Source: a virus | Lineage: Duplodnaviria > Caudoviricetes | Strand: one strand, 5' to 3' | Length of the DNA stretch: 53,907 nt | IMG/VR virus record: IMGVR_UViG_3300046713_000242 | Location: 1-53,907 of that record | Shown: in pieces, positions 5,196-22,291 of the stretch | Position numbering within the stretch: position 1 is the first letter of the stretch | Layout: the number at the start of each line of letters is the position of its first letter | The notes under the pieces: generated by a model | What the model was told of the DNA's origin: nothing | The model's input: only the letters and a program-made list of their open reading frames with translations | The model's database searches: none | Program-made: the position numbers and the translations under genes

Positions 5196-5269
5196 CCCCA
5201 TCTCTGCCGCGCTTGGCGGCCCCGTAAGAACAATCATCAGCTATCCCAATACCGTTTGCAAACGGAATC
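5196..5269 (-). repeat. Dispersed promoter/operator/leader cassette, copy 1
   Basis: 74 bp identical to 18155..18228; contains the palindrome CCGTTTGCAAACGG and the hairpin GCCGC-CAAGC-GCGGC. Confidence 0.95.
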
Positions 5270-6866
5270 AGCGGAAGCGCTTCCCCAGCGTGCGGCGAAT
5301 GCCCTCGCGGGCGAACCACAGGCCCATTAGCCGGTCACCCGTATGGTTCTTCGGGCCACCGCCAGGGCGGTAGCTCGCCATCTCGACACGCAGCGCAGCG
5401 AGCTCGGGATCCACGTCGTCGCCCTTGTCCCCACTCGGGAAGAGCCACAGGCGCTGGCGCAGCTCGACCGCGATGGACTCGATCCCAAAGTCTTCGTCCC
5501 ACTTGCTTTGGGCTGAGGTGTTGTAGGGCTCGACCGAGATCTTCTTCTTGCTGACCGTGTGCTGGCGCAGAAACTCTTGCGCGCCCACGCTTTCGACGAT
5601 CATGCGGCTGTTGAAGCGCAAGTGCGTCTCGTAGATGCGGTCGATTATTTCGTCTGCCGTCCACTTCCCCGCCTCGATCTTGACCAGCTGCCGGCGCTTG
5701 TCGTCGCGCAGCGCCACCGTGACGAGCGCCGTGACGTCGTGCCCTTCCTTCTGGCCGACGCCAAGGTCCACGCCCGTCCAGCACGGCAGCGCGCGCGGGC
5801 CAGGCCACAAGAGCGGCCGACGCTCGAGCATCTTGAGCCCGCGCCCAGCCGTGAGCGCCACCCTGATCGCCCAGTCCGGGAAGCGGCTACTGATGTCGTT
5901 GACGACGCGGCACAAGTACTTGCGCGCGAACGCCGACGGCTGCATGCCGTTGAGGCGCTTGAGCAGGCGCGACAACGGCCACTGTCCAGCCCATGTCGTG
6001 ATCCAGTTAGCGGGCTTGTCTTCGGGGTTCTGCACGGCGCTGAACACGCGCCCCTCGAAGCTCTTTCGCTTCGGGAGCTCGTGCAGCAGGTCCCAGTCAG
6101 CGAACGGGGTACCAATCACCCAGATCCGCGCCGGGTAGCCGCCCTCGGCCTGATCCTGGGCACGCGTGAGCACCATCGTATCGAACCAAGCAATCGTCTT
6201 CTGCGCGGCTTCCAGCGTGCCCGTGTTCTGCAGGTTGAGCACGTCATCGAGCACGATGATGTCGAGGCGTGCGCCGGCGATCTTCGTGCCCGAGCCGTAG
6301 ACGCGGATCGTGGGGTTACGCAGGTACGGGCTGCGCTCGACCTCGATGGCGTGCATGTTCCAGATCGCGTGCTTGCGCGAGCTGCGCTTCAGGTGCGGGA
6401 AAACCTCGTGAAGACGCTGCGATTCCTCGATGTATCGCTTGATAATCCCGAGCATCACGAAGGCTTGCTCTTCGGAGTCGGAGATGATCGCGCAGCGCAG
6501 GTTAGGGTTGCGGCCGATCTCCCAGAGCAAGCGCGCGATGATCTGGAAGCTCTTGCCGTGCTCGACGGGGGCTACGAGAACGCTCCACTCGTTCTTCGTC
6601 CAATGCTCGTGCCATTCCTTGTGGATCGAAGCGCAGTGGATGGGCTTGCGCGTGGTCTCATCGACCATCACGAAATCAGCGAAGTCGACCGGGTCAACGC
6701 GCGCGCGCCTGATCTGGACGGTGCGCCGAGCTCGAGCACGCTGCTTCAGCTTGTGCCGATACGCGTCCAGGTCGTAGACGTTGGCGCCAGGCCCCTCGAT
6801 GGGGTTGATGGGCATGCCGCCTAGCGCGTCTTGCGCGTGAAGGGCGCCCAGTGATCGCGAGCTCAT
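5268..6866 (-). CDS. terL: Terminase large subunit
   Basis: Walker A APVEHGKS, Walker B IIVLDD, VIGTP, nuclease GVDLG...D...DRLMGLW; TGATG coupling at the start. Confidence 0.92.
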   Translation of the reverse strand: MSSRSLGALHAQDALGGMPINPIEGPGANVYDLDAYRHKLKQRARARRTVQIRRARVDPVDFADFVMVDETTRKPIHCASIHKEWHEHWTKNEWSVLVAPVEHGKSFQIIARLLWEIGRNPNLRCAIISDSEEQAFVMLGIIKRYIEESQRLHEVFPHLKRSSRKHAIWNMHAIEVERSPYLRNPTIRVYGSGTKIAGARLDIIVLDDVLNLQNTGTLEAAQKTIAWFDTMVLTRAQDQAEGGYPARIWVIGTPFADWDLLHELPKRKSFEGRVFSAVQNPEDKPANWITTWAGQWPLSRLLKRLNGMQPSAFARKYLCRVVNDISSRFPDWAIRVALTAGRGLKMLERRPLLWPGPRALPCWTGVDLGVGQKEGHDVTALVTVALRDDKRRQLVKIEAGKWTADEIIDRIYETHLRFNSRMIVESVGAQEFLRQHTVSKKKISVEPYNTSAQSKWDEDFGIESIAVELRQRLWLFPSGDKGDDVDPELAALRVEMASYRPGGGPKNHTGDRLMGLWFAREGIRRTLGKRFR

Positions 6867-7249
6867 CAGTCTGCCTTCTGATCGCGCGCTCGAGTCATCA
6901 TGGTCGCCTGCACGTCGCGCGGCAGCGTGCTCGGCGCCTCGACCACGATCCCATGCTCGCCGAAATCCCAGAACAGCCACATGCGCTTCTGGTGGTGCAG
7001 GCGGTAGAGGCCCTGGCCATCGTGCGTCACGTCAGCCCAGGACACCGAGCGCCATTCGACGGTGCGCACGACGGCTTCGCGGTGCTGGGGCGCGCCCAGG
7101 TCGAGCACGCTCTGCGCTTCGGCGCGCTGCTCGCGGTATTGCAGCGAGGGGTACATGGGCGCGGTCTTCTGCGAGGCGATCTGAGCGGGCACCTTGCCCG
7201 TTGCTTCGACGATGGCGCCGATCACCTGTAACGCCCGAACTTGGTTCAC
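6866..7249 (-). CDS. Hypothetical protein
   Basis: Translationally coupled on both sides. Confidence 0.65.
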   Translation of the reverse strand: MNQVRALQVIGAIVEATGKVPAQIASQKTAPMYPSLQYREQRAEAQSVLDLGAPQHREAVVRTVEWRSVSWADVTHDGQGLYRLHHQKRMWLFWDFGEHGIVVEAPSTLPRDVQATMMTRARDQKAD

Positions 7250-7443
7250 GGGCCGACATCAAGGTCAACGTGGTCGAGCGCCGGCAGCAGCACGACCGCG
7301 GTACTCAACTCATCCCCGTGCCAAACCTGCCGGAAGCGCACGATCACGCCGGTATCGCGCATGTACGCGTGCCCGCGCAGCGCTTCCCAATACGTGCTTT
7401 CGGCGTGCTCGCGCAACCTTTCAAGGGTGATGGCGTCTGGCAT
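7246..7443 (-). CDS. Hypothetical protein (leaderless)
   Basis: TAATAT-N7-ATG. Confidence 0.6.
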   Translation of the reverse strand: MPDAITLERLREHAESTYWEALRGHAYMRDTGVIVRFRQVWHGDELSTAVVLLPALDHVDLDVGP

Positions 7444-7450
7444 GAGGCCG

Positions 7451-7479
7451 ATATTACACAAAACGATTGCGCAAATCAG
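7451..7479 (-). promoter_or_regulatory. Promoter CTGATT-N17-TAATAT for the terL operon
   Basis: AT-rich patch, TG next to the -10 box, TTTGCGCAAT overlapping the -35 and spacer. Confidence 0.6.
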
Positions 7480-8054
7480 CCGGGGCGCGCTGAACGAGCT
7501 AGCGACACGAGCCACTCAGCGAACGCGATGGGTGTGCGGCGACGCTGTTGTGCGCTGCAAACCTTGATGCCTGGCGGGACGATTCCTCCTGAGCCTTTGC
7601 GGTTTTTGTTTCGCCCGCCGCTCACCCAGTGAGTGGGATTCCGCGCTGGCGGGCGCTCGCGCGGGAATGACACGCCGACCAGGTACAGCCACGTGCGCTT
7701 TCGTGCAGGGTGCCCCCAGTCGACCTGGCAAACTTCGATCGTGTACCCGCCGAACGCATCGGACGGAGCTCCCGGCATCGGCATCCCCATCGCCTGCCAA
7801 AGCCGCGAACGGGAAGGGTGCTCCAATACGCCACCGTACGCCCTCACCTGCTCGACTGCGCGCGGACCGCAGTCGGCCGCAGCGCCATTGCTTAGGTGCC
7901 GCAACGATCCCCACGGGCCGCAAGGCGGGTGCGCCACGACCGGGAAGGGCCCGGCGTATGCGCGGGCGTCGCGCTGCTCATCCCAGGGATCGACGCCTTC
8001 GAGCCCGAAGTACGGCCCGCCCTTCTCTACGAACAGCGCGGCGACTGTCACCAC
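7476..8054 (-). CDS. Short C5 cytosine DNA methyltransferase-like protein
   Basis: AHPPC (motif IV), VLEHP (VI), Q..WGHPARKRTWLY (VIII). Confidence 0.75.
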   Translation of the reverse strand: MVTVAALFVEKGGPYFGLEGVDPWDEQRDARAYAGPFPVVAHPPCGPWGSLRHLSNGAAADCGPRAVEQVRAYGGVLEHPSRSRLWQAMGMPMPGAPSDAFGGYTIEVCQVDWGHPARKRTWLYLVGVSFPRERPPARNPTHWVSGGRNKNRKGSGGIVPPGIKVCSAQQRRRTPIAFAEWLVSLARSARPG

Positions 8055-8131
8055 CCGTTGCCGTCGCCGAAAAGCGCATAGAAGGCCACGCCCACGACGA
8101 TCAGCAGCAGGTCCCAGAGCGTGGTGATCAC
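8048..8131 (-). CDS. 27-aa membrane peptide (below the ORF-track cutoff)
   Basis: MITTLWDLLLIVVGVAFYALFGDGNGW; GTGA overlap, fills the gap exactly. Confidence 0.6.
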   Translation of the reverse strand: MITTLWDLLLIVVGVAFYALFGDGNGW

Positions 8132-8469
8132 CGCCCTTCCCCGACCGCGCGCGCCTTGGCCAGGTCGTAGCGCTGTTGGAGATTCATCCAAAACTCAGGC
8201 GTGGTTCCGAGCAGGCGCGCGAGCAGCAGCGCCATCGGCGCGTCAACGTCGCGCCGCTCTTCCATGAGAGCGCGCAGGGGGTTGATGAAATCCTCGCGCA
8301 GCACCTCGCCAGGGTGGACGCTAGGCGTGGCGGCGTCTGCCACGGCGCCGGCGCCAAGCTGAGGGACATACTCGGCACACTGGCAAATCAAGCACTTGAA
8401 CGGATGACCGATTTGCCCGCGGTGCTCGCCCGCAAAGTGTCCGCACCGCTGACAGGGTTTGTTGCTCAC
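8128..8469 (-). CDS. Zn-finger + HigA-like antitoxin with an internal HTH deletion
   Basis: CQRCGH...H...CLICQC, then HPGEVLREDFINPL and MALLLARLLGTTPEFWMNLQQRYDL. Confidence 0.8.
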   Translation of the reverse strand: MSNKPCQRCGHFAGEHRGQIGHPFKCLICQCAEYVPQLGAGAVADAATPSVHPGEVLREDFINPLRALMEERRDVDAPMALLLARLLGTTPEFWMNLQQRYDLAKARAVGEGR

Positions 8470-8798
8470 AGTTCCTCTTTCTCATGCGGATCGAAGCGCC
8501 GCACGCCGTTCACTTTGAAGTGCTCGAGCGCCTCGTGCGCTACGAACCTCACCACCAAGCTGCGCACCCACCAGACGCGCGCGTCCTCATCGCGCAATGA
8601 CCAGTCGAGCCAATCGACGGTCTCGCGCATCGCGACCTGTGTGGGCTTGCCGGTGTCGCGGTCGAGCACTTCCATGTGGGCCGAGATCACGACGCGATCC
8701 GTGCACGCTTGAAAGTCGGTGTCGCGCGGTGTCACGTGCGGCGTTGCGACCGCGACGCGCACGTTTGAAATGCTCAGGCCTGAAAGGTCGATGTCCAC
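8466..8798 (-). CDS. Hypothetical protein
   Basis: Coupled ORF; HEALEHF...FDPH motif seen in phage proteins. Confidence 0.65.
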   Translation of the reverse strand: MDIDLSGLSISNVRVAVATPHVTPRDTDFQACTDRVVISAHMEVLDRDTGKPTQVAMRETVDWLDWSLRDEDARVWWVRSLVVRFVAHEALEHFKVNGVRRFDPHEKEEL

Positions 8799-9028
8799 TA
8801 CACCGCCCCGTAACTGATCGTGTTCTCGGCGGCTTCCTCGACCTCAGACGCGAACCGCGAGAGCGCCACCGCGTCGCACTCCCCATCACGGTAGCGCGCG
8901 TCGAGCAGCTTCTTTGCCGCGTCGCGCAAGTGCCGCTCGAAGCTTACGAGCGCCAGCACCGCGCGCTTGTCGCCGACCATGGCGCGCTTTTCGATCTCGT
9001 GAAGCGCGCTGTCCTGCTCGGCGCTCAC
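8798..9028 (-). CDS. Hypothetical protein
   Basis: GTGA coupling. Confidence 0.55.
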   Translation of the reverse strand: MSAEQDSALHEIEKRAMVGDKRAVLALVSFERHLRDAAKKLLDARYRDGECDAVALSRFASEVEEAAENTISYGAV

Positions 9029-9210
9029 GACTTGCTCAGCCGCAGCTGCTCGAGCATTTCGAGCAGGTCCGCATGCGCGCTCCTGGCGCCGCCTTCCGTG
9101 GCGAACGGGCCCACTTCGCGCTCGGGCTGGCCCTCGACCATGACAACGAGCCACCAGCCATCGCTGCCCGCGACAACTTCCGTTTTGAGCTTTAGGATAA
9201 GCCCCATCAC
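9025..9210 (-). CDS. Hypothetical protein
   Basis: Coupled ORF, VGPFAT motif. Confidence 0.6.
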   Translation of the reverse strand: MMGLILKLKTEVVAGSDGWWLVVMVEGQPEREVGPFATEGGARSAHADLLEMLEQLRLSKS

Positions 9211-9533
9211 GCTGGGCCCCCGAGCTCTGCGATGAGCTTGAACAGCTCGCGGATGTCGTCGCGCGCCTTCACGAGCACGTCAGCGATCTCGGGTGCCGTC
9301 TGCGAGTACTCGCTTGCGTGCACGTGATCGGTGCAAAGCCAGGTTTCGTCGTCGTCTGACACTACATCGTGCCGCCGGCCATCCTCGCCGAAGCTGGCGA
9401 TCGGCCAGTCGTTGCACGCGTCTTTGATGCCGTGTGCGATGCGCATGGGCGGAACGAGCCGCCAGCGCTCGTGGATCTCGCGCATGCGCTCGACCATGGC
9501 GGCGCTGGCTTGCTCATCGGCGGGCTGGCTCAT
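9207..9533 (-). CDS. Hypothetical protein
   Basis: TGATG coupling. Confidence 0.6.
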   Translation of the reverse strand: MSQPADEQASAAMVERMREIHERWRLVPPMRIAHGIKDACNDWPIASFGEDGRRHDVVSDDDETWLCTDHVHASEYSQTAPEIADVLVKARDDIRELFKLIAELGGPA

Positions 9534-9739
9534 CACTCGTACTCCTTGAGTAGCTGTTCGTAGACCGCGGCCGCGGCACCGTGCGCGTCGGCCAGCTTGC
9601 CGCAGTGCTCGCGCAGCGGCCCGTCGCCTCCGGGATAGGCCGCGCGCGTCTGCTTTTCCTGTGCGCGCAGCGTACGCGCGAGCTCGATCGCGCTTCCGAT
9701 CACGATCCGGCTGCCTAGGTCGTTCCTGTCCACGTTCAC
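9533..9739 (-). CDS. Hypothetical protein
   Basis: Coupled ORF. Confidence 0.55.
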   Translation of the reverse strand: MNVDRNDLGSRIVIGSAIELARTLRAQEKQTRAAYPGGDGPLREHCGKLADAHGAAAAVYEQLLKEYE

Positions 9740-10044
9740 CCCCCCGTTCCTGGCTTGTCGAAGCGGCCGTACTTGGCCACGGCAGCGCCAAGCGGAGACG
9801 CCCCGAGCAGCATGGCGTCGGCCTTCATGACGTAGGAGGCGAACCCGAGCGCGCGAAGCTCGTTGGCCGCCTCGGCATCGCCCTTGGACGGGAAACAGGG
9901 GCCTTCATGGAGCAGGCGCCACAGTTCCTCGCGCATGACCTCTGGCAGGTAGCGGAAGGCCTTCTGCGCCGCCTCGATGTAGTGGCCGGTCCCGTAATCG
10001 TGCCGTTCCATCTCGGTGAGCGCTCGCTTGAGTACGTCCATCAT
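9736..10044 (-). CDS. Hypothetical protein
   Basis: Coupled ORF. Confidence 0.6.
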   Translation of the reverse strand: MMDVLKRALTEMERHDYGTGHYIEAAQKAFRYLPEVMREELWRLLHEGPCFPSKGDAEAANELRALGFASYVMKADAMLLGASPLGAAVAKYGRFDKPGTGG

Positions 10045-10250
10045 CGTCGGACACCGGGATCATTGCGGCGAACGAAGAACGCGCACCCGCCTACCATCGT
10101 CGCGATACGCTCTTCTAGGTGGGCAAGCGTGTAATCCGCCAAGTCTTTCGTGGGCACCACGGCCGTGATTCTGAGCGTCGCCGGCTTTCCCGCCGCATTG
10201 ACGCCGCGAAAAAACAGCTGGTGCTCGGGGTGAGCGGGATCGAGTTGCAT
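10041..10250 (-). CDS. Hypothetical protein (leaderless, first gene of the leftward operon)
   Basis: CACCTT-N7-ATG. Confidence 0.6.
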   Translation of the reverse strand: MQLDPAHPEHQLFFRGVNAAGKPATLRITAVVPTKDLADYTLAHLEERIATMVGGCAFFVRRNDPGVRR

Positions 10251-10257
10251 GGCGGCG

Positions 10258-10320
10258 AAGGTGACACCCGCCCCGATTTTGCGCAATACGTTTGCGCAAA
10301 TATCAGGCGGCGCTTAGGCT
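10258..10320. promoter_or_regulatory. Back-to-back divergent leaderless promoters
   Basis: Minus: TTGCGC-N17-CACCTT-N7-ATG(10250); plus: TTGCGC-N17-TAGGCT-N7-ATG(10328). Confidence 0.75.
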
Positions 10321-10327
10321 CCCGCGC

Positions 10328-11377
10328 ATGCCATCAGAACTGTTTCTCACATCGATTCGCGGGATGCACGACACCTCGCGCCGCGCGGACCTCGGCCTGA
10401 CCCCCGCCGGGCTCGAGCAGCTTTGCGCGTGGATCCTGAACGAGTGCGCAGAAGATGCCGCGCGCGCGCCCGAGCCCGCACCGGCTGTGGCCGCGCCCAA
10501 GGCCATCGAAAAGCCCGCCGACCACAAGCAGCTTGAAGAGGCCTACGACCGCGTCACGCACGAGCTCGGGCACACGCGCGACCTACTGATCGCCATGCGC
10601 AAAGCCTGCGTGCCGCTGGACGGCGAGGAAACGCCAGCCTTTGCCATTCGCGTGATGGGGCTCGCTTCGAGCGACATCGGCGAACTCTCCGACGCGCCCG
10701 AACGCGAGACACAGAAACTGCGCGACCTGCTCGGCTCGTGCGAGCGCTCGCGCAACGACTGGAAAGCGCGCTTCGAATCGATCGACCGCCAGGGGGAGGC
10801 CGTGACGCGCGAGCGCGACCGGCTACGCGAGCAGCTCGACGCGCTCAAGGATCTGCGCGGCGTGAGCGCGACCGAAGTGGCGCTGAAAGAGCGCGTCGCC
10901 GAGCTTGAGGGCGAGCTCACGCGCGAGCGCTTGCGCAGCCCCGAGATCATCACGCCGAAGCCGTGCACGCACGAAGGCATCGGCCTGCCTGGTTGCAAGA
11001 TCTGCGACCCGCGCACCGAGAGCCAAGGCGGCCCCCAGCCCGACCTGCCCAGCCGCCATGATGTGCGGATGATCGCGGAAGCATGGATCGGCCCATACAT
11101 CAGACCGGCGTCCGAAGAAAGCGAGCAGCGGCACCTTCTGCCTATGCACACGATCATCGACTTCGGGCTCTCGCTGCTGAAGACGTACGACCCGCGCAAT
11201 CGCCAGATCAAGCCCGGCGACGTGCTGCAGATCGAGCGTGAATCAGGCCTCCCTGCGTTCTTGCTGGTAGAAAATACCGACGACTACGTGCGCGGGCAGC
11301 TCTACACGGCAGAGCCAGGTCGCCACAGGGTGCTGCTCACGAACATCCTGGTGCGTGTCGGCAAGGCCGCTCCATGA
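10328..11377 (+). CDS. Coiled-coil protein with a Cys/His cluster
   Basis: E/R/L heptads; CTHEGIGLPGCKIC. Confidence 0.7.
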   Translation: MPSELFLTSIRGMHDTSRRADLGLTPAGLEQLCAWILNECAEDAARAPEPAPAVAAPKAIEKPADHKQLEEAYDRVTHELGHTRDLLIAMRKACVPLDGEETPAFAIRVMGLASSDIGELSDAPERETQKLRDLLGSCERSRNDWKARFESIDRQGEAVTRERDRLREQLDALKDLRGVSATEVALKERVAELEGELTRERLRSPEIITPKPCTHEGIGLPGCKICDPRTESQGGPQPDLPSRHDVRMIAEAWIGPYIRPASEESEQRHLLPMHTIIDFGLSLLKTYDPRNRQIKPGDVLQIERESGLPAFLLVENTDDYVRGQLYTAEPGRHRVLLTNILVRVGKAAP

Positions 11378-12498
11378 TCCGCCTGGGCACGAAGGACGAC
11401 GACAGCGCGCTGAACCTGCCCAGCGACGTCACCACGCAAGCCATGGCGGTGATCGGGCGCCGCGGCTCGGGCAAGACGTACACCGCGGGCGTGATCATCG
11501 AGGGACTGTTGCGACAGGGCTCGCACGTGGTGGCTATCGACCCGGTGGGCACCATGCACGGGCTCGCGCACCTGGCCGACGGCACGCCTTCCAATCTCGG
11601 CGTGGTCATCTTCGGCGGCGACCATGCGAACGTCGATATCGAAGAAACGCAGGGCGCCGCGGTCGCCATGGTGGTGGTGCGCGAGAACGTCAACGCGGTG
11701 ATCGACGTGTCGCCATGGAGCAACGCCGCGCGACGCCGTTTCATGACCACCTTCAGCGAGACTTTCAACCAGGAGATCAAGCGCAAGCAGCACCCGATCA
11801 CGCTGGTGATCGATGAAGCGCAGCTCTTCCTGCCGCAGAACCCGCCCAAGGGTGACGAACGCATGGTGGGCGCTCTGACGTATTACGTGCGCCTCGGTCG
11901 GAACTTCCGAGGCGGCTGCATCCTGATCACCCAGCGCCCGCAGAGCGTGACCAAGGAAGCGCTGAATCAGTGCGAGGTGCTGATCCTCGGCCAGCTGACA
12001 GGCCCGCACGAGCGTAAGGCCATCGAGGCATGGGTGGTCGAGAACGTCGCCGACGTGGCCGGCGCGCGGCAATGGCTGCGCGAGCTCGTGAGCCTGCCTG
12101 TGGGGACGGCCATGGTGTGGTCACCGCAGTGGCTCAAGGTCTTCGAGAAGGTGAAGATCTCGAAGAAGACCACCCTGGACACGGGCTCGGGCAGCGTGAA
12201 GGTCAGCACGCCATCGGTAGGGAACATCGTGTTGACCGCCAAGCTGACCGAACGCGATATCGCCGAAGTGGTAGGCGAGATCGTAAACCCGGCATCGGAA
12301 GAGCTCGTTAGGTTGCTCGCGCACGAGATCGGCGAGCCGCTGACCGCGCGCTTCCAAAAAGAGAGGCGGATCGCCTATGTGCTGCACCTGTTCGACACGA
12401 ATGGCGGCGGCGCGATCGGAACCATCGCCAACGTCAGCCGCGAGTCGAAGATCGCCATTGTCGAACGCTGGCTTTCCTTCGTGAAGGCGGGGAACTGA
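11374..12498 (+). CDS. HerA/FtsK-superfamily (DUF87-like) ATPase
   Basis: GRRGSGKT, AIDPVG, LVIDEAQ, GRNFRGG..LITQRPQ. Confidence 0.88.
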   Translation: MIRLGTKDDDSALNLPSDVTTQAMAVIGRRGSGKTYTAGVIIEGLLRQGSHVVAIDPVGTMHGLAHLADGTPSNLGVVIFGGDHANVDIEETQGAAVAMVVVRENVNAVIDVSPWSNAARRRFMTTFSETFNQEIKRKQHPITLVIDEAQLFLPQNPPKGDERMVGALTYYVRLGRNFRGGCILITQRPQSVTKEALNQCEVLILGQLTGPHERKAIEAWVVENVADVAGARQWLRELVSLPVGTAMVWSPQWLKVFEKVKISKKTTLDTGSGSVKVSTPSVGNIVLTAKLTERDIAEVVGEIVNPASEELVRLLAHEIGEPLTARFQKERRIAYVLHLFDTNGGGAIGTIANVSRESKIAIVERWLSFVKAGN

Positions 12499-14234: not shown

Positions 14235-14320
14235 ACACAGTGCGCCTAAGGAGGCCCGCCGGGTTGGCTCGCATATGCGCCGACGGGTTGCGGATACAGT
14301 CGCGCTGCCCGCTCAGTTTA
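14194..14320 (-). ncRNA. Candidate ~115-nt sRNA or attenuating leader
   Basis: TAAACT -10 box at 14315-14320, internal stems, CCTCCTTAGG anti-SD, terminator. Confidence 0.5.
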
Positions 14321-14325
14321 CCGCG

Positions 14326-15775: not shown

Positions 15776-15810
15776 ACACGACCTGGTGGGTTTGGGGGGG
15801 GTCGAGCGCG

Positions 15811-16443
15811 TCAGGCGTCGGTGCGGTTTCCGGTGCGCGCGTTCGCCTCGCGCTGGGCGCGCAGCTCGAGCTCGCGCCTGACGGCTTCGAGCGGGCAGTG
15901 CGGGTCGTCGCAGGTGTGCTCGAGAATGAGGTGGGCGTTGTCTGGGTCAGCACCGGCGACCAGGCGCGCGACGGTCACCTGCCGGTCGTAGGGCAGCCCA
16001 TCCAAGCCGCCGGCAGCCAGGGTGCGGCGCTCTTCGTCGGTCAGGGCAGGCTCACCCCCTTTGACGAGGAGGTCGTTCACCTTTCGGAGATCCGCCAGGG
16101 ACTCGAAACGGCGGCGCGCAAAGCCTCCTATCGACTCCATCAGCGCCACGACCTGAGCTGGCTTGGCGTCTGGAACGGACTCAACGACAAGATCGGTCAC
16201 GGCGTCGCCCAGCGCCCGAGCAAAAACGGCCATACCGGCCACGGTGATGCGCTTGGCTTCCGCGGTGCTGGCCGCGCCTTCGACATCAGCGCGCATTTCG
16301 GCCAGAGCCGTCTCGAGCCTCTTGAGGGTGCCTGCGAAGACGCCCGGGATGTGGTCCGGGTAGTAGCGCGCGATATCGTCGTAGATGCTCTCTTTCATTG
16401 AGCTTTTCATTTGTTCGTACAGGCTGGGCGGGGGCGTGCTCAT
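15811..16443 (-). CDS. Hypothetical protein
   Basis: Helical ORF, HTCDDPHC motif. Confidence 0.65.
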   Translation of the reverse strand: MSTPPPSLYEQMKSSMKESIYDDIARYYPDHIPGVFAGTLKRLETALAEMRADVEGAASTAEAKRITVAGMAVFARALGDAVTDLVVESVPDAKPAQVVALMESIGGFARRRFESLADLRKVNDLLVKGGEPALTDEERRTLAAGGLDGLPYDRQVTVARLVAGADPDNAHLILEHTCDDPHCPLEAVRRELELRAQREANARTGNRTDA

Positions 16444-16445
16444 GA

Positions 16446-17102
16446 TTAGCGTTCCTTTTTGACCGGGACGTGGGGCGGGTTGTTGGTGAATCTGAGGGCG
16501 GGTTTGCCTTGGAAGTCGGGCAGGCGCACGACCGGGAGCGCGTGCCCCGCCAGGTTGACCCTGGCCGACTTGACGTCGAGATCGAGCGCTTCGAGCGCGT
16601 CGCGCGCGTAACGGGCGTGGAGGATGCGCTGCTGCCTGCTGGGGGGATGGTCTTCATGCAGCTGGCGCGAGAGCGCGGCCCAGAACGTCAGGTGTTTGAC
16701 GGGCAGGCGCTCATCGGCGCGGAAGCGGTCGACTTCGCGCCGCATCGGCCCATAGAACGCCTCGAACAGCTCGTTTTTCTTTAGCTTTGTATCGCTCCGT
16801 TTGGCGCGACGCGCCTGGGTGACGCGGTCCATTTGCTGGCGGAAGCGGATGCGGCAGCCGAGCGCGCCCCGCATGACCAGCAGGCGGCCGCAGTCGAAGC
16901 ACAGGGTTACCCACTCTTTGCCGAGGGAGCGGAAGGTGGTGTGCTCGGCGTTGGGCTTTTCGCAGAGCGAGCAGACGCCGCGAACGGCGGTGTAATCCTT
17001 CATTGAGACGAAGGTCCAAGGCCCTCGGGCGGCCATGTCGGCGAGCCCAGACGGCGCGGCGGTTTCGGGGGCGGCAGCGGGTCGAGCTTCGTGATCGGTC
17101 AT
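16446..17102 (-). CDS. Hypothetical Zn-finger protein
   Basis: CSLC...CFDC; ATGA coupling. Confidence 0.65.
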   Translation of the reverse strand: MTDHEARPAAAPETAAPSGLADMAARGPWTFVSMKDYTAVRGVCSLCEKPNAEHTTFRSLGKEWVTLCFDCGRLLVMRGALGCRIRFRQQMDRVTQARRAKRSDTKLKKNELFEAFYGPMRREVDRFRADERLPVKHLTFWAALSRQLHEDHPPSRQQRILHARYARDALEALDLDVKSARVNLAGHALPVVRLPDFQGKPALRFTNNPPHVPVKKER

Positions 17103-17308
17103 GGGGTTGTCTCGGGCAGGGCCAGGCGCTGGCGCGCGAGGGCGTTGAGGACGGCTTGCTTGAGGGCGGACGTGTAGAAGCGGCCGCAGTCGAGGCACTC
17201 GCTATCGAGCGCCATCATGGCGACGTAGCGGCGCCCAGAGCCCCCGCAGCAGGGGCAGGACTGCACCCAGCGGGTGGTAGCGACCATGGGGGTATAGAGG
17301 CCGGGCAT
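17099..17308 (-). CDS. Zn-ribbon protein
   Basis: CPCC...CLDC. Confidence 0.6.
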   Translation of the reverse strand: MPGLYTPMVATTRWVQSCPCCGGSGRRYVAMMALDSECLDCGRFYTSALKQAVLNALARQRLALPETTP

Positions 17309-17616
17309 TAGGCAATCTCCCGCAGCCAGGCGGCGACTCGGCGCGCGCGCTCGATGCTCTTCTCGGTATCCCTGACCAGGTCCGATCCGATGCTGAGCTG
17401 CCTACGCCGCACATCGGCGAGCCAGTTCTCTTCGCGGTCCGCGGACGCCTCCAGATCGGTGATGGCCGAGACCAGCGCGGCTGTATCAGGCTTTTTTGGG
17501 CGTTTGCGCTTGGTGGCGATGACGACCGTTAGGGGGGCATTGCGCACGCTGTCGAGCTCGCCGCCCGGCAGGCAGACGCGGTCGTGATCGGCGCCCTTCT
17601 CTGTTTTCTTGGCCAT
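17308..17616 (-). CDS. Hypothetical protein
   Basis: TAATG coupling. Confidence 0.6.
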   Translation of the reverse strand: MAKKTEKGADHDRVCLPGGELDSVRNAPLTVVIATKRKRPKKPDTAALVSAITDLEASADREENWLADVRRRQLSIGSDLVRDTEKSIERARRVAAWLREIA

Positions 17617-17618
17617 GA

Positions 17619-17801
17619 TCAGGCGAACCAGGGGCCGGCGAGGCCGGCGCGCACGAGTGCCTGACGGTCCACGCCTTGCTCGAGCAGCGCGAAGAAGCAG
17701 TCGCGATCCCCGAACACGCCCGCGGTGTGCTTGTAGCGCTGCGCGTCCCAGAGCCTCTGCACGTCTTGCTTGGTGAGCGTCTTTTTGGGTGCGGTGCTCA
17801 T
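17619..17801 (-). CDS. Hypothetical protein
   Basis: ATGA coupling, GGAGG SD. Confidence 0.6.
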   Translation of the reverse strand: MSTAPKKTLTKQDVQRLWDAQRYKHTAGVFGDRDCFFALLEQGVDRQALVRAGLAGPWFA

Positions 17802-17977
17802 GAGCGAACCTCCGTCGAGAGCGCCCAGATCCCCGAGGGCTCTTGGTCGGCCGAGGTGAAGACCTGCGCGAGCAGCGCCGAGACGGCGGCGAAGGTGTCG
17901 AAGCCGTGGGCGTGCGCCTCGACGGTGTGGAAAGGGTCCTGGGCCACCGCGGCGGCCAGCTGCGCGTCAGAGACCAT
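17798..17977 (-). CDS. Hypothetical protein
   Basis: TAATG coupling. Confidence 0.5.
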   Translation of the reverse strand: MVSDAQLAAAVAQDPFHTVEAHAHGFDTFAAVSALLAQVFTSADQEPSGIWALSTEVRS

Positions 17978-18147
17978 TATGCGGCCTCGCTTTCGAGCGA
18001 GAGACCGAGCTCGGCGCACAGGGCGAGGCCGAGGCGCTCGCTGAGCTCGAAGTCGATGGCCGTAGCCGTCTCTTTGTCCGTGTGAAAGGAAAGGCGCCAG
18101 TGATCCTTCAGCGCCTCGGTGCTCAGCTTGCTCAGTAGATTGCCCAT
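17977..18147 (-). CDS. Small acidic orphan protein driven by repeat copy 2 (moron)
   Basis: 56 aa MGNLLSKLSTEALKDHW...; ATG 7 nt after the conserved leader. Confidence 0.7.
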   Translation of the reverse strand: MGNLLSKLSTEALKDHWRLSFHTDKETATAIDFELSERLGLALCAELGLSLESEAA

Positions 18148-18154
18148 GTCCCCG

Positions 18155-18228
18155 CCCCATCTCTGCCGCGCTTGGCGGCCCCGTAAGAACAATCATCAGC
18201 TATCCCAATACCGTTTGCAAACGGAATC
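18155..18228 (-). repeat. Dispersed promoter/operator/leader cassette, copy 2
   Basis: Identical to 5196..5269. Confidence 0.95.
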
Positions 18229-18233
18229 GAACG

Positions 18234-18572
18234 TCAGTCGGTGCCCAGGTGGGATTGGCTGGTGATTTCGAGGTTCGGGACGATCAGCACTTCGACGCCG
18301 CACCGAAGTACGACCGTGTAGCGGCGGCGCGAGTCTGTAATCGAGGTGATGCGCAGCGCCTTACGCTTCACGAGCTCGGTGAGCAGCCCAAAGACCGCTT
18401 CCACGGCTTCGCGCTTCTCGCCCGGGTAGAGGCTGGGCACGGCGTTGACGTAGCAGAGAATGCCCAGCGGGCGGGCGCTTGGCGGAATGGCTCGCGTCAC
18501 GTTGACGACAGCGCTCAGGTCGACGCGCAGCTGTTCGAACTGCCGGCGCTCTTCGGGGTTTTGGCCGATCAT
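18234..18572 (-). CDS. Hypothetical protein
   Basis: ATGA coupling. Confidence 0.6.
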   Translation of the reverse strand: MIGQNPEERRQFEQLRVDLSAVVNVTRAIPPSARPLGILCYVNAVPSLYPGEKREAVEAVFGLLTELVKRKALRITSITDSRRRYTVVLRCGVEVLIVPNLEITSQSHLGTD

Positions 18573-19024
18573 GGGGCGATCCGAAGCGCGAGTGCGCGCG
18601 GGCGTTCCCACACGTTGGCATCGAAGATCAGCACCACGCCGCATTCGCGCGCGCCTGCCGGCGTGCCTACGGTGTGGTGGTGGCGCGTGTCGTCGATCGC
18701 AGCCCAGCCATCGTTGCGCATCACCTTCATTTTCACGAGCGCATCAAGGCTCATCTTTGACGCGACGAACTCTGCGCCGTCTTTGTCGCGGCGCTTGTCC
18801 GGATGGTAGTGGACGAAGGTGATCGCCAGCGCGAGCGGCAGCGGCGCAAAGCCTTGTTGCAGCGCCAGCCAGCCGATCTTGTGCGTCCATTCTTTCTTGG
18901 CGTCGGCGAAGCCATCGATGCGCTTGCCGTTGGCCTTCGTGAAGCCGCGCGCCTTCTGGTCGATCAGGTCGTTGATCGTCGGCATGATGCCGGGCACCCA
19001 GAGCGCCTTGGGTAGCGCACTCAT
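18569..19024 (-). CDS. RusA-like Holliday junction resolvase
   Basis: PTIN...HPDKRRDKDG....KMSLDALV...NDG motif set. Confidence 0.75.
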   Translation of the reverse strand: MSALPKALWVPGIMPTINDLIDQKARGFTKANGKRIDGFADAKKEWTHKIGWLALQQGFAPLPLALAITFVHYHPDKRRDKDGAEFVASKMSLDALVKMKVMRNDGWAAIDDTRHHHTVGTPAGARECGVVLIFDANVWERPRALALRIAP

Positions 19025-19203
19025 GCCTTACGCCTAGGCAGAAAACGAGTGCACAGGCTGTCGGTGAAGTTGGCAAAAAGCAGCGTGCAATAAGCGTATT
19101 TCCACCAATCTTTGTCGAAAAACAAGCACGCCACGCCGATGCCCAGGGCGACGGCGCCGCTGATCAAGCCAATCCAAAAGAGCAATGCCTTACCGATCGT
19201 CAT
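19021..19203 (-). CDS. Small two-TM membrane protein
   Basis: Two hydrophobic segments, lower GC. Confidence 0.6.
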   Translation of the reverse strand: MTIGKALLFWIGLISGAVALGIGVACLFFDKDWWKYAYCTLLFANFTDSLCTRFLPRRKA

Positions 19204-19514
19204 TGTTCCTCAAGCAGCTTCGCGCGACGGCGGAAGCGCTCGGCGGTGGTGTGCTGGCCGTGGGCGTGTGCGAGCTCGGCCGCCTCGTGCAGAAGCGCGC
19301 TGGTCAGCACCTCTTCGCCGATCGACTGCTCAGCGAAGTGCAGATCCATCAGGTTTGCCGAGACCGTGAGCGCCTCGATCTCAGCGCGGTCGAAGTTGCG
19401 CGAGCTCGGCGCATCGTTTCCCACGCGGTGCGTGAGGTTGGCAATGCGCCGCTGCAGCGTCTGCAAGTGCTTGCGGGAGGGTTTGATCAGGTCGTCTTCG
19501 GCTCTGGTGTTCAT
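19200..19514 (-). CDS. Hypothetical protein
   Basis: ATGA coupling. Confidence 0.6.
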   Translation of the reverse strand: MNTRAEDDLIKPSRKHLQTLQRRIANLTHRVGNDAPSSRNFDRAEIEALTVSANLMDLHFAEQSIGEEVLTSALLHEAAELAHAHGQHTTAERFRRRAKLLEEQ

Positions 19515-19741
19515 GAGGGGGAGTCTATCCGTAGCCTTTGGTGCTGGTAGAGCGGATGCGGAAGCATCTTCACGCACCCGGTGCCGCTGTCTACGGCGCA
19601 ATAATCCGCGGTGAAGACCGGGCGGCCGCCGGCGATGGCCACAATGCGACCGAGCAGCTGGCCGGTGTGCGTGCGCGGCGCGCGCGGGTCGCGCTTGAGC
19701 GCGCGCCTGCACATGCGATCTCTTTGTTTGAAGCTCATCAT
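19511..19741 (-). CDS. Hypothetical protein
   Basis: ATGA coupling. Confidence 0.5.
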   Translation of the reverse strand: MMSFKQRDRMCRRALKRDPRAPRTHTGQLLGRIVAIAGGRPVFTADYCAVDSGTGCVKMLPHPLYQHQRLRIDSPS

Positions 19742-20238
19742 TTTGATCGGACCTTTCCAAAGCTGTTTTTGGTCGTGCCGCAGTCCACCAGCTGAAACCA
19801 GCGCGGGCGCGAATCGGCGATGCCGTGCCAGTGCAGCGAGTCCGGGCATGGGTCCATCACGCGGCCGCGGATCCAGTCCTCGACGTAGGCGCGCGCCGCG
19901 GCGACCTGGCGACCGCGCGCGCTCGCATCACCCGGCGTCAGCACGCGGATCGAGCGCGGGCGTGCGGCATCGCTTTTGAGCGTGGCGCTGTAGCTCATGA
20001 TCCGGCTCGGCGTGTCGCCGTAGCGATCGAGCCTGTGCTGCAACGTCCAGAGGATGGCGGCCCAGTCATAGACCGAGCGATCGGCCTCAGCGACCAGCAC
20101 GCGCGACAGTACGTCTTCATGGCCGCGCCAGGCGCCCGACGGGTGCACGAAGGCCTGCGCCTGGGAGACTGCGGCCAGGAAAGCCACCGACATGGCGAGC
20201 ACGAACAGGCTCAGAAAAAACGCGGTTTTGACTCTCAT
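19738..20238 (-). CDS. Secreted SleB/Hydrolase_2-like lytic transglycosylase
   Basis: Signal peptide (AQA-F), LSRVLVAEA catalytic-Glu helix, DPC...LHWH...PRW. Confidence 0.65.
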   Translation of the reverse strand: MRVKTAFFLSLFVLAMSVAFLAAVSQAQAFVHPSGAWRGHEDVLSRVLVAEADRSVYDWAAILWTLQHRLDRYGDTPSRIMSYSATLKSDAARPRSIRVLTPGDASARGRQVAAARAYVEDWIRGRVMDPCPDSLHWHGIADSRPRWFQLVDCGTTKNSFGKVRSK

Positions 20239-20540
20239 GGTGTCTTTCCTTTCTCGAGCGCAAACGTGATCGCTTCATCGAGCATTTCGTGGTCGACGCC
20301 TTCACCTTGCTGCAGCCCGCGGCGCAGGTTGCCCACGCCGCGGCTGTAGCTCTCGAGCATCAGCGTCCAGAGGATCTCGCAATCCGCGTTGAAGGCGTCC
20401 TCGGTCGAGGTAGGAATGCGCGCGTGGATGCCGCGCACGTAGCGCTCGAGCGTCACGCGCAGCGGGGCGAGCCGCTTGAACACGGCGCGCTCTTCGGCGC
20501 TGATCCCGGTGTGCGGGGTTTGCTGCTGGCGAAAACTCAT
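20235..20540 (-). CDS. Hypothetical protein
   Basis: ATGA coupling. Confidence 0.6.
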   Translation of the reverse strand: MSFRQQQTPHTGISAEERAVFKRLAPLRVTLERYVRGIHARIPTSTEDAFNADCEILWTLMLESYSRGVGNLRRGLQQGEGVDHEMLDEAITFALEKGKTP

Positions 20541-20815
20541 GATTCGATCCCTTCCCCTGTGCGGCAGTCGCTCGCCTTCTTGCGCGCGGCCGCGGCGCGT
20601 GAGCGACAGATCGCGGCGTCTTCTGTCCTGCCCCAAGCTTCCCAGCGCCGCGCCTGATCTTCCCAGCCACGCGCCGTGGCGTCGTAGCGCGGTGCGAGCT
20701 TTTGCATGTGCTCGCGGTCGAGCTTGCGGATCCAGCGGCCGCAGAACACGGCGAAGATGGACACGGCGCACATCCCCGCACCGATGCAGGTCAGCACCGT
20801 TTGAACCCGGCTCAA
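20537..20815 (-). CDS. Single-TM protein
   Basis: TTGA coupling, hydrophobic N-terminus. Confidence 0.5.
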   Translation of the reverse strand: MSRVQTVLTCIGAGMCAVSIFAVFCGRWIRKLDREHMQKLAPRYDATARGWEDQARRWEAWGRTEDAAICRSRAAAARKKASDCRTGEGIES

Positions 20816-21129
20816 TTTGCCCACACTTTCACGGCGTAGCCCTTGATCTCGGTATCGAGCGCGCTCGACACCCTCCACCACGCCCAGAAGTGCACGAGCC
20901 CGACGCCGAGCCACGCGATGCGGCGCAGCCCCACCAGCACCACGATCGTCGGCTTCTGCCCTTCGTCGTGGATCGCAACGGTGGCGCTGGTGAACGCGCG
21001 CCAAGGCACCTTCACGGTCGAAGCCTTGCTCGCCACGTAGAGCTCGAACGCGCGCGTATTGGCGGCCTGTACGAGGCGCTCTTCAGGCCGTAGACGGCCA
21101 TGGATCACTTTTGTCGACTTTCGATCCAT
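20812..21129 (-). CDS. Hypothetical protein
   Basis: Operon packing. Confidence 0.5.
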   Translation of the reverse strand: MDRKSTKVIHGRLRPEERLVQAANTRAFELYVASKASTVKVPWRAFTSATVAIHDEGQKPTIVVLVGLRRIAWLGVGLVHFWAWWRVSSALDTEIKGYAVKVWAN

Positions 21130-21575
21130 GCCTGCGCGCTCTTCGCTGTGATCCATTCACGGTGCTTTCCGGTGGGGTCTTCGCAGACCAAGCTACCCGC
21201 CTCGATGTGGTTACGCAGCGTGCGCTGCGACGAACTCGTCAGAGCCGCGAGAAAGCTCTGGTGCACACGCAGCCCGAGCGCGATGCGCACGCGGGCACAC
21301 GCAGCCTGCAAGAGCAGCCCGAGGGGGCTGTCGGGGAAGTCGGACGGGTCGAACGCCCCCCACTGGCGCGGCGTGGCTGCCGGCGCGCGCAGCCAGTACT
21401 CGAGCGCGCGCTTCACGTCGTTCTCGGCGCCGCTCGCCGTGTAGGTCGCATAATCGTACACGACGCCGATCGCACGCACGTGCAGGGGGAGCCCACAGAG
21501 AACGCGCGCTTGCGTGATGTAATCGGCGCGCGAGTAGTCGCCGATCCGTGGCTCGATTCGAGGAATTCCGCCCAT
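21105..21575 (-). CDS. Protein with a C-terminal HTH (Xis/MerR-like); candidate regulator of the repeat cassettes
   Basis: LAALTSSSQRTLRNHIEAGSL...WITAKSAQAWIE. Confidence 0.65.
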   Translation of the reverse strand: MGGIPRIEPRIGDYSRADYITQARVLCGLPLHVRAIGVVYDYATYTASGAENDVKRALEYWLRAPAATPRQWGAFDPSDFPDSPLGLLLQAACARVRIALGLRVHQSFLAALTSSSQRTLRNHIEAGSLVCEDPTGKHREWITAKSAQAWIESRQK

Positions 21576-21577
21576 TT

Positions 21578-21841
21578 TTACTGCTCTCGTTCTTGATCCG
21601 GGTCGTAACCCGGAACCTGCGCGCGCTTCATGAGCTCGCTGTTTACTGCCCACATGCAAAAGTCGCTGTCGATGTTCGGCCGCCGGCGTCCTTTGAGCCC
21701 GTACGCCTGAAGCGTGCCGCCAACGTAAATCGCGTAACCGTCGTTGCCGTGCACGCGGTGCGTCACTCTTACGGTGACGTAGGGGTATTTGACGTGCGGC
21801 GCGTGCTCGACGTCGAGCACCTGCCAGTCATCGTCGGTCAT
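21578..21841 (-). CDS. Small orphan protein (cassette 3, gene 2)
   Basis: ATGA coupling, lower GC. Confidence 0.65.
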   Translation of the reverse strand: MTDDDWQVLDVEHAPHVKYPYVTVRVTHRVHGNDGYAIYVGGTLQAYGLKGRRRPNIDSDFCMWAVNSELMKRAQVPGYDPDQEREQ

Positions 21842-22113
21842 GGAGCGGGCTTAGGAAGCCGCGGGCCGAGGATCAGCAAGCTGTGATCCCCGAGCACCTT
21901 CGGACTCATGCCCATGTATGCGTACTGCGGAGCGTCCGAAGCAATCAGCGCGATCGTGAGCTCGTTCTGTGACCATTCCTGGCGCAGCACGTCGTACCCG
22001 ATCTCGATCGCCTCATAAGAATCGCCGTAGCGATCTACGTAGGTCGTCGCTGTCCACGTCACGACTCGGGTCTGTCTCTTCAGGCCCGGGTAGGCACTCG
22101 CCAGAATCCCCAT
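21838..22113 (-). CDS. Small orphan protein driven by repeat copy 3
   Basis: ATG 6 nt after the conserved leader. Confidence 0.7.
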   Translation of the reverse strand: MGILASAYPGLKRQTRVVTWTATTYVDRYGDSYEAIEIGYDVLRQEWSQNELTIALIASDAPQYAYMGMSPKVLGDHSLLILGPRLPKPAP

Positions 22114-22291
22114 GCTGTCCCCCATCTCTGCCGCGCTTGGCGGCCCCGTCTTCTATCGATCCTGAGGTCTGGCAATACCGTTTGCAAGCGGAATCATCGA
22201 ATCGGCGAAAGTGATCCGCCTGCTCACCCTCAAGACGGCTCACGCGCCGCTCGAGCTGCTCAAGGCGTATTCGGTCGGCTTTGCCCAGCAC
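22013..22291 (-). CDS. Short coiled-coil ORF reading through repeat copy 3 (possibly interrupted by the cassette)
   Basis: N-terminal RLEQLERRVSRLE looks genuine; the C-terminus is repeat-derived. Confidence 0.35.
   Translation of the reverse strand: MLGKADRIRLEQLERRVSRLEGEQADHFRRFDDSACKRYCQTSGSIEDGAAKRGRDGGQHGDSGECLPGPEETDPSRDVDSDDLRRSLRRFL
22120..22195 (-). repeat. Dispersed promoter/operator/leader cassette, copy 3 (diverged middle)
   Basis: 30-nt leader identical and GATTCCGyTTGCAAACGGTATTG conserved; distal spacer and -10 region differ. Confidence 0.9.

Follow-up and report, generated by a model that had tools for sequence, protein, structure and literature searches.

The sequence analyzed here, referred to as the window, is the complete IMG/VR record IMGVR_UViG_3300046713_000242, a linear record of 53,907 bp with an estimated completeness of 84%. 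The record represents a novel tailed phage from soil, which is uncultivated, has a high GC content (approximately 65%), and exhibits a contractile-tail gene set. Three copies of a short intergenic cassette were found on the minus strand at 5196–5269 (copy 1), 18155–18228 (copy 2), and 22120–22195 (copy 3), each shortly before the start codon of a different small gene. As the window spans the whole record, three is the full count of the cassette. The structure of this cassette, which combines a palindrome centered on a −35-like box with a leader block containing a hairpin and a Shine–Dalgarno (SD) sequence, and its likely role in gene expression are the subject of this report.

The repeats described in the initial annotation were confirmed, as sequence reads and pattern searches reproduced both the 74-nt identity and the two blocks retained in copy 3. 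Copies 1 and 2 showed 100% identity over 74 nt. The 30-mer of the leader block, ACGGGGCCGCCAAGCGCGGCAGAGATGGGG, occurred three times without a mismatch (5196–5225, 18155–18184, and 22120–22149), and the 23-mer of the upstream block, GATTCCGYTTGCAAACGGTATTG, likewise occurred three times (5247–5269, 18206–18228, and 22173–22195), while 0.00 occurrences of either were expected from 100 shuffles. The upstream block of copy 3 was GATTCCGCTTGCAAACGGTATTG, which differed from copies 1 and 2 by one mismatch. The 21–23 nt between both blocks were identical in copy 1 (5226–5246) and copy 2 and unrelated in copy 3; together, middle and leader block cover 18155–18205 in copy 2 and 22120–22172 in copy 3. 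The 14-bp palindrome CCGTTTGCAAACGG was perfect in copies 1 (5252–5265) and 2 (18211–18224) and contained one mismatch in copy 3 (22178–22191), and no further site with two or fewer mismatches was present in the record. Two weaker candidates, a palindrome with three mismatches at 20797 and, at 9217, a GCAGAG..GGGGG stretch, were attributed to chance. The −35-like TTGCAA (5256–5261, 18215–18220, and 22182–22187) was followed after 17 nt by the −10-like hexamer GATGAT in copies 1 (5233–5238) and 2 (18192–18197) or CAGGAT in copy 3 (22159–22164), and the leader block began 7 nt (copies 1 and 2) or 9 nt (copy 3) past this hexamer. Within the leader block, the hairpin GCCGC-CAAGC-GCGGC (5206–5220, 18165–18179, and 22130–22144) was followed by AGAGATGGGG, which includes the G-rich SD, and the block ended 8, 7, and 6 nt before the ATG at 5185–5187, 18145–18147, and 22111–22113, respectively. 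An ATG within the 30-nt block was rejected as a start, since it was in frame with the downstream gene in copy 3 only and lacked SD spacing. All three copies were intergenic and oriented in the same direction as their flanking genes. The stop codon TGA (5268–5270) of terL (5268–6866, minus strand) overlapped copy 1 by 2 nt, copy 2 began 5 nt past the stop codon at 18234–18236 of the gene 18234–18572, and copy 3 began 105 nt past the stop of the gene 22301–22813, with non-coding DNA between.

The initial annotation had regarded the upstream part of the cassette as a promoter with the dyad on its −35 box and had placed the start of the conserved block at about the transcription start. Both proposals were supported, albeit indirectly, by the palindrome geometry and by a second class of palindromes that served as a calibration. 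In both versions of the spacer, the −10-like hexamer stands precisely 17 nt from TTGCAA and retains A2 and T6, while the remaining spacer differs. Palindromes of the TTTGCGCAAA type (class I) gave seven matches at one mismatch or fewer, compared with 1.21 expected, and none of 100 shuffles reached seven. Each included TTGCGC, and six of the seven were intergenic. The two divergent control regions of the genome each contained two such palindromes 13 bp apart (10278–10300 and 26001–26023), and single sites were located at 4899–4908, just behind the gene following copy 1, and, with one mismatch, at 7466–7475. A scan with the pattern TTGC[AG][AC]-N16-18-nAnnnT detected 13 sites, compared with 7.3 ± 2.7 in 50 shuffles, and the seven that were both intergenic and gene-facing consisted of four TTGCGC sites and the three cassettes. 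At all four TTGCGC-N16/17-nAnnnT sites, the start codon lay 7 or 8 nt past the −10 hexamer. The pair at 10278–10300 holds the −35 TTGCGC boxes of two divergent promoters leading to ATG 10328 (plus strand) and ATG 10250 (minus strand), 7 nt each; the pair at 26001–26023 gives TTGCGC-N16-TACCTT, 8 nt, and ATG 26051 of the Erf operon; and the single site at 4899–4908 gives TTGCGC-N17-CAGATT, 7 nt, and GTG 4871. A fifth class I site, at 7466, showed TAATAT, 7 nt, and ATG 7443 of a 65-aa gene ahead of terS and terL.

That four of four sites would share one −10-to-start spacing by chance is unlikely, and the class I sites appear to be promoters of leaderless mRNAs with their −35 boxes inside operators. 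This calibration suggests that −35 boxes embedded in palindromes are a habit of this phage. Moreover, since the class I start codons lie 7–8 nt past the −10 hexamer, transcription would start at that distance, which in the cassettes brings +1 to the border of the 30-nt block. By the same geometry, +1 in copies 1 and 2 coincides with the opening base of the block and in copy 3 precedes it by 2–3 nt. Conservation may thus resume at the 30-nt block because the block is the 5′ untranslated region (5′UTR). Two other promoter types were rejected upon inspection, as no GG element was present at −24 for a sigma-54 promoter and the GGAATC that could indicate an extracytoplasmic function (ECF)-type promoter was on the wrong strand. 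The small minus-strand genes 25699–25980, 10041–10250, and 7246–7443 begin at apparent leaderless promoters. The first of these adjoins the operators at 26001–26023 and encodes 93 aa with a helix-turn-helix (HTH)-like stretch, LAAKTDVSAPTLRKIY, and no Pfam match.

The leader hairpin proposed in the initial annotation was likewise supported, though by covariation in the copies of relatives, as folding alone was unconvincing. Five related records taken whole (G001–G005) were compared with this phage (G000), with which they had structural genes alone in common. G001, G003, and G005 shared a leader of hairpin, AG, SD, and ATG with differing, compensating stems. In G001 and G005, its repeated form was a 5-bp GC-rich stem with a 4–7 nt loop, followed by AG-(C)(C)AAGGAGAG-N4-6-ATG, and the stems were GCCGC/GCGGC, GCGCC/GGCGC, GTCGG/CTGAC, and GGTCG/CGACC. 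In a MAFFT alignment of 11 leaders, 90.9% of the paired cells were complementary, compared with 81.8% after shuffling (1 of 500 shuffles reached the observed value). The covariance model built from this alignment gave 20 matches at E ≤ 0.05 in the 1.48 Mb of this phage and its relatives, comprising the 11 seeds and nine new sites. By eye, seven of the nine new sites had a clean stem of 5–6 bp (GCCCG/CGGGC, GCCGG/CCGGC, GCGCC/GGCGC, GCCGG/TCGGC, GACGC/GCGTC, GGCGC/GCGCC, and CAGCGC/GCGCTG), and two were doubtful. Across the 20 matches, 93.8% of the cells were paired compared with 74.3% after shuffling, 12 cells had changed on both sides compared with 2.3, and the covariation score was 0.386 compared with 0.074, with none of 500 shuffles reaching the observed value in any of the three measures; when the partners were slid by 1–3 columns, the score was ≤0.056. 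Independent of the model fit, three orthologous gene pairs of G001 and G005 (54, 35, and 49% protein identity) all bore the motif, with stems that differed. G–U pairs and the presence of several stems within one genome are better explained by pairing in RNA than by a DNA site that one protein recognizes. The motif occurred in three copies in this phage, at least five in G001, and at least seven in G005, and in the relatives with whole records all leader matches fell in the non-structural part of the genome.

An unfiltered covariance search of this phage returned the three cassette leaders as strong matches and, before position 29590, a single weak candidate (E 0.06). This possible fourth leader (29588–29622, minus strand) has the stem GCUAC-AAACA-GUAGC, followed by CAACGGGGGACAC-ATG, before the gene 29207–29590. 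Rfam gave no match at the gathering score in the whole window, and 18100–18260 returned chance-level rows only (E ≥ 5.3). The cassette hairpin does not resemble an intrinsic terminator, as it lacks a T-run, is followed by AGAGATGGGG, and was not listed by the terminator scan. The plus-strand operon ends in a terminator-like hairpin with a T-run (13476–13495, plus strand); GCCAAGCG is present both in the loop region of this hairpin and in the cassette hairpin, probably by coincidence. Judging from upstream 20-mers, G-runs act as SD sequences before other genes of this phage as well.

A cassette of the same promoter-operator-leader layout was present in G005 (L101) at three minus-strand sites, 7407–7506, 11775–11868, and 13337–13432, with ATGs at 7407, 11775, and 13337. 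It reads AAAGAC-T(A/G)GAC(G/A)-ACGCTnnnnAGCGT-nn-TA(G/A)(A/G)(G/A)T, followed after approximately 7 nt by the hairpin leader, and the hairpin lies 0–8 nt from the inferred transcription start. The −10 boxes are clear (TAGAGT, TAGGAT, and TAAGAT, at 16-nt spacing), while the operator differs in sequence from that of this phage and lies in the spacer, not on the −35 box. The remaining hairpin-SD sites of G005 and G001 (e.g., G005 12994, 6811, 5557, and 987) lacked the G005 promoter-operator block. The genes behind the G001 and G005 leaders include a MoxR-like ATPase and its partner, which are conserved genes and not orphan cargo. In G001 (L094), two genes at 2100–2236 and 4430–4568 have an identical 51-nt leader and N-terminus (MTQTQTALAQ), and both have the upstream 15-mer GCCGGTAGCAGAAAC 3 nt ahead of a TTGC box; this arrangement may be a third lineage-specific cassette.

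The first open reading frames (ORFs) behind copies 1–3 encode 88, 56, and 91 aa, with N-termini lacking obvious similarity. Cargo 1 (4921–5187) is an acidic alpha/beta protein, cargo 2 (17977–18147) belongs to no family, and cargo 3 (21838–22113) had no homologue except itself. The start at 5187 was confirmed by seven cargo-1 homologues (61–80% identity), all of which begin with MA(F/Y)..GY or MVF..GY, and the start at 22113 agrees with the stored 91-aa protein. These observations correct the initial annotation, in which each copy was thought to drive a small orphan gene, as each copy heads approximately 7–11 co-oriented genes and cargo 1 has homologues. On the minus strand, the gene string of copy 3 runs from 22113 to 18234 and includes a RusA-like gene (18569–19024); that of copy 2 runs from 18147 to approximately 13640 and includes a Cro/CI-type HTH_31 gene (15203–15775); and that of copy 1 runs from 5187 to 2105 and then continues into structural genes, with a MazG-like 85-aa gene (4297–4554) and a RyR-domain gene (2723–3349) farther down. 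Terminator-like sites occurred no more often than in shuffles, and no such site closed the gene strings. The HTH_31 gene, approximately 2.4 kb downstream of copy 2, is the only HTH gene in a unit, and no HTH family was detected among the small genes directly behind the three copies, even at E ≤ 1. Another HTH gene of the phage lies at 8131–8343.

The moron-like portability suggested earlier was supported for copy 1. In G001 and G005, the homologue of the gene 950–2005 lies within approximately 120–140 nt of terL, while in this phage 3.2 kb with seven small genes (2106–5267) separates the two, with copy 1 at the upstream edge and cargo 1 as the first gene. By this comparison, copy 1 and its cargo are a moron-like insertion into the late gene string. 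The anti-defence role assigned to the cargo was not supported, as PHROGs and Pfam gave no family for the three first genes or their small neighbors. The cargo proteins are small and acidic. The cargo-1 model was a small alpha/beta domain (pLDDT 75.3), and the Foldseek check proposed in the initial annotation, run on this model, returned no PDB match at E ≤ 1e-3. The Protein Atlas gave no result for cargo 1. The cargo data neither support nor exclude an anti-defence role. The immediate-early timing suggested in the initial annotation likewise found no support.

With a probability of roughly 0.55, we interpret the cassette as a co-regulated gene-start unit, in which a promoter with a repressor-type dyad on its −35 box is joined to a fixed 5′UTR bearing the hairpin and the SD. 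A host sigma-70-family RNA polymerase would start at TTGCAA-N17-(G/C)A(T/G)GAT. The 14-bp dyad, centered on the −35 box at approximately −33.5, would be bound by a dimeric protein of the phage, most likely a repressor, and would place the three units under one control, apart from the TTTGCGCAAA class of the two divergent control regions. Transcription is predicted to start 7–8 nt past the −10 hexamer, 0–3 nt from where the 30-nt block begins. Together with the following 6–8 nt, the block would then form a common 5′UTR of 36–38 nt, composed of the 5-bp hairpin, AG, the G-rich SD, and the ATG. The 5′-proximal hairpin may protect the RNA end, leave the adjacent SD free, or both, giving a defined translation start, while mRNAs from the other promoters of the genome appear to be leaderless. 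Copies 1 and 2 are perfectly identical even in the unconstrained middle, which suggests a recent copying or gene-conversion event, plausible in a phage encoding Erf and an exonuclease (26–28 kb, plus strand).

Several observations weigh against this interpretation. On the promoter side, the start codons of the leaderless calibration sites were the author's choices among in-frame starts, and a scan with the Escherichia coli consensus called no site in 4000–23999. The cassette hexamers match the E. coli sigma-70 consensus at 8 of 12 (GATGAT) or 7 of 12 (CAGGAT) positions, and the −10 hexamer is no better conserved than the remaining spacer (4 of 6 compared with 4 of 8 positions). A population variant, 18195 A>T, seen in one contig of one run (X12) at a depth of 6, changes this hexamer in copy 2 from GATGAT to GAAGAT. 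Copies 1 and 2 lie directly behind upstream genes with no terminator, so read-through alone could express the cargo. No regulator was linked to the dyad, and among the 24 soil and rhizosphere runs containing the phage, all were DNA and none was RNA. Regarding the leader, the hairpin folds at −9.3 kcal/mol with a z-score of −0.33, a value equaled or bettered by 77 of 200 shuffles, and it is missing from the minimum-energy fold in two of three longer contexts. Furthermore, the covariation count comes from a model-fitted alignment of copies that are related and not independent, to which the three hairpins of this phage, being identical, contribute no covariation.

Of the competing explanations, one that we regard as unlikely dispenses with the promoter. 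The cassette would be an intercistronic RNA or DNA signal on read-through transcripts, comparable to the start-associated sequences (SAS) and extended SAS (ESAS) of mycobacteriophages; the hairpin and SD would set the translation or processing of the next cistron, and the upstream repeat would either bind a protein independently or fold into a weak RNA hairpin. Copies 1 and 2 do abut upstream stops with no terminator, several hairpin-SD sites of relatives (G005) lack a promoter-like block, the hexamers are weak compared with the consensus, and in SAS/ESAS a variable spacer and inverted repeats lie upstream of a conserved block that is 3–7 bp from the ATG (PMC3203893). However, such a signal would leave unaccounted for the A2/T6 hexamers exactly 17 nt away in two unrelated spacers, a block that begins where class I promoters place +1, the clear −10 boxes of the G005 cassettes, and the 105 nt of non-coding DNA ahead of copy 3. 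Retaining the promoter and leader and assigning the dyad to an activator is less likely again. A phage protein would then turn on the three units as a delayed class, middle or late, which fits the weak core hexamers, the spread of the units over much of the minus strand, and the position of copy 1 within the structural string, where no terminator was seen and transcription would also feed 950–2005 and beyond. There is precedent in lambda CII, which acts at three scattered promoters, and in the comparable activators Mor and C of Mu. Nevertheless, class II activators sit near −41.5, while the dyad center at approximately −33.5 falls on the −35 box itself, the usual place of a repressor, and TTGCAA is as good a box as the TTGCGC of class I.

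The initial annotation had favored an Aca2-like arrangement, in which one HTH protein binds both the promoter dyad and the 5′UTR hairpin of a regulon whose cargo counters host defences. The layout resembles published Aca systems as far as the portions of the report used here describe them (PMC13551039), the cargo is small, acidic, and of no known family, and an HTH_31 gene is present in unit 2. This reading fared poorly all the same and is judged very improbable. Upon inspection, the dyad CCGTTTGCAAACGG and the RNA stem GCCGC/GCGGC had no sequence in common, PHROGs and Pfam revealed no known acr or aca family, the HTH gene is approximately 2.4 kb downstream of copy 2, and cargo 1 had no fold match. 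Moreover, the hairpin leader of relatives also occurs without the operator, and in G001 and G005 it precedes conserved MoxR-like ATPase genes and their partners with varying loops and stems, which argues for a structural role rather than a site specific to one protein. A wider proposal, only slightly less improbable, is that the hairpin-AG-SD leader is an undescribed lineage-wide RNA element read by a phage factor that times when selected early genes are translated, and that in this phage it is coupled to a private operator, bringing three accessory sets (possibly counter-defence) under Aca2-like DNA and RNA control. The least probable reading takes the repeats chiefly as recombination substrates similar to the promoter-early stem-loop (PeSL) elements of T4-type phages, with copy exchange shuffling or excising cargo and regulation being secondary. 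A perfect direct repeat of 74 nt in a phage encoding Erf and an exonuclease, the position of copy 1 at the edge of the 3.2-kb insertion, and the recombination and mini-circles described for PeSL repeats (PMC2839356, in the parts considered) agree with it. Against this, terS and terL would be lost if copies 1 and 2 underwent exchange, and recombination leaves unexplained the two kept blocks flanking a diverged middle in copy 3. In the contigs of four runs, no joint between copies was observed, but contigs ended inside the repeats, so this carries no weight either way.

The cassette was also compared with the known systems, as far as the portions of the three papers used here describe them. Each genome carries approximately 50 PeSL elements, concentrated in hyperplastic regions ahead of ORFans, with promoters that equal or nearly equal the E. 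coli sigma-70 consensus, a stem-loop in or beside the promoter that acts as a terminator, and insertions and deletions bounded by the repeats (Arbiol et al. 2010, PMC2839356). As in the present phage, PeSLs are short repeated intergenic cassettes that lead from an upstream stop through a promoter and stem-loop to an SD and start codon, and the genes behind them are small, have no assigned function, and lie in variable regions and at insertion edges. Unlike them, this phage has three copies with weak hexamers, the hairpin is in the transcribed leader beside the SD without a T-run, and the perfect dyad on the −35 box could form only a hairpin of 5 bp and 4 nt, also without a T-run. No sequence homology to PeSL was apparent, and the cassette departs from most of the features that define PeSLs in that account. 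The SAS of Cluster K mycobacteriophages is a fixed, SD-containing 13-mer, GGGATAGGAGCCC, located 3–7 bp before the start of unrelated non-structural genes in one orientation; its function is unproven, no RNA hairpin is supported in the sections considered, and the ESAS adds two imperfect 17-bp inverted repeats with a 4–13 bp spacer just upstream of a subset of SAS (Pope et al. 2011, PMC3203893). The cassette similarly places an SD-containing block 6–8 nt before the ATG in three of three copies on one strand, and its motif is lineage-wide. However, the 13-mer is not in the cassette and the analogy is functional, not one of homology: the constant feature of this lineage is a hairpin with covarying stems followed by AG and a purine-rich SD, and the place of the ESAS repeats is taken by a single uninterrupted 14-bp palindrome on a −35-like box, 30–32 nt upstream of the block.

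In Aca systems, a promoter inverted repeat is combined with an RNA motif that starts directly past the transcription start; up to three DNA and RNA motif pairs precede neighboring operons, and RNA motifs lie between genes (PMC13551039). The likeness consists of a 14-bp palindrome centered on TTGCAA over the predicted promoter in three of three copies, a hairpin that starts 5 nt into the block, itself beginning at the inferred +1, and the recurrence of this pairing ahead of different operons. The differences are that no aca or acr family was detected, no HTH gene is next to the cargo, the DNA and RNA elements have no common sequence, and the RNA motif of relatives precedes conserved replication-type genes. 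In lambda, the boxB of the nut sites forms a 5-bp stem closed by a pentaloop; it occurs close to where early transcripts begin and is repeated in the genome. In the present phage, by comparison, no boxA-like element or N-like protein was identified, and the variable loops do not resemble GNRA loops. The stoperators of mycobacteriophage L5 are many dispersed asymmetric repressor sites within operons, while the dyad here is symmetric and on the −35 box. Taken as a sequence comparison with the accounts used, the cassette appears to match the SAS/ESAS and Aca layouts and to differ from them in sequence or gene content. On present evidence, it ranks among the ordinary regulatory repeats of phages rather than as a demonstrated anti-defence system.

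As a gene-start unit, the cassette would give a compact picture of the expression layout in an uncultivated high-GC soil phage, with two operator classes, one with apparently leaderless mRNAs and the other with a fixed hairpin-SD leader. This two-class promoter picture and the lineage-wide covarying hairpin-SD leader, which lies outside Rfam, are what the analysis adds. The start-associated sequences of mycobacteriophages still lack an explanation, and the leader motif may be their natural counterpart. Should the units prove portable, they would mark entry points of accessory genes, such as the 3.2-kb insertion behind terL.

Apart from the genes named above, those for the capsid (52369–53748), baseplate J (35310–36512), and a DNA methylase were recognized. 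The closest isolated phages, Streptomyces phages, are 25–31% identical in terL and capsid, and a megablast of 20 kb against isolated phages gave no match. Queries with the TerL, RusA-like, and cargo-1 proteins found no relatives among viral contigs. Uncultivated relatives are many, with capsid identities of up to 54% in IMG/VR and 68–69% in metagenome assemblies, and the phage's own protein was also found on a 66.7-kb contig; one of the cargo-1 homologues was encoded on a contig of 58.6 kb. The 24 DNA runs contained the phage nearly unchanged. The host clues conflict, as contigs of phage-genome size were binned with Deltaproteobacteria or Polyangiaceae, while the nearest isolates are Streptomyces phages. 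Next to the insertion (950–2095 and 190–948, minus strand), the post-terL gene of relatives matches approximately 120 aa only of ORF 950–2005, which is followed by ORF 190–843, and no recognizable portal was found in this record; the portal is either diverged or split, or in the missing ~16% of the genome.

Exact cassette 30-, 20-, 19-, and 17-mers gave 0, 0, 0, and 1 matches in viral contigs, the single 17-mer match (L153) being rejected as a chance hit in an AT-rich coding stretch. A 28-mer at three or fewer mismatches was absent from 401 genomes of the phylum of a metagenome-assembled genome bearing a related capsid gene. In metagenome contigs, the 20-mer occurred at 10 loci (approximately seven distinct), most in coding sequence, as chance predicts for a GC-rich 20-mer. 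A 2.5-kb metagenome fragment (L007, 230–320, minus strand) carries two tandem GC hairpins with AAGC and CAAGC loops, the second of which equals the cassette hairpin and is followed by AGAG, a strong SD, and an ATG. The fragment is phage-like, with excisionase-like and Cas4-like nuclease genes, and has no similarity to the present phage beyond 21 nt. Elsewhere in the window, a CT/AG-rich simple repeat (AGAGGGAGATCTCTCTCTCTCTCTGTC...) was observed at 23449–23490, inside the long minus-strand ORF 22791–23942. Finally, an exact 21-nt direct repeat (28613–28633 and 28975–28995, 362 nt apart) lies at the starts of the adjacent plus-strand ORFs 28609–28968 and 28965–29210.

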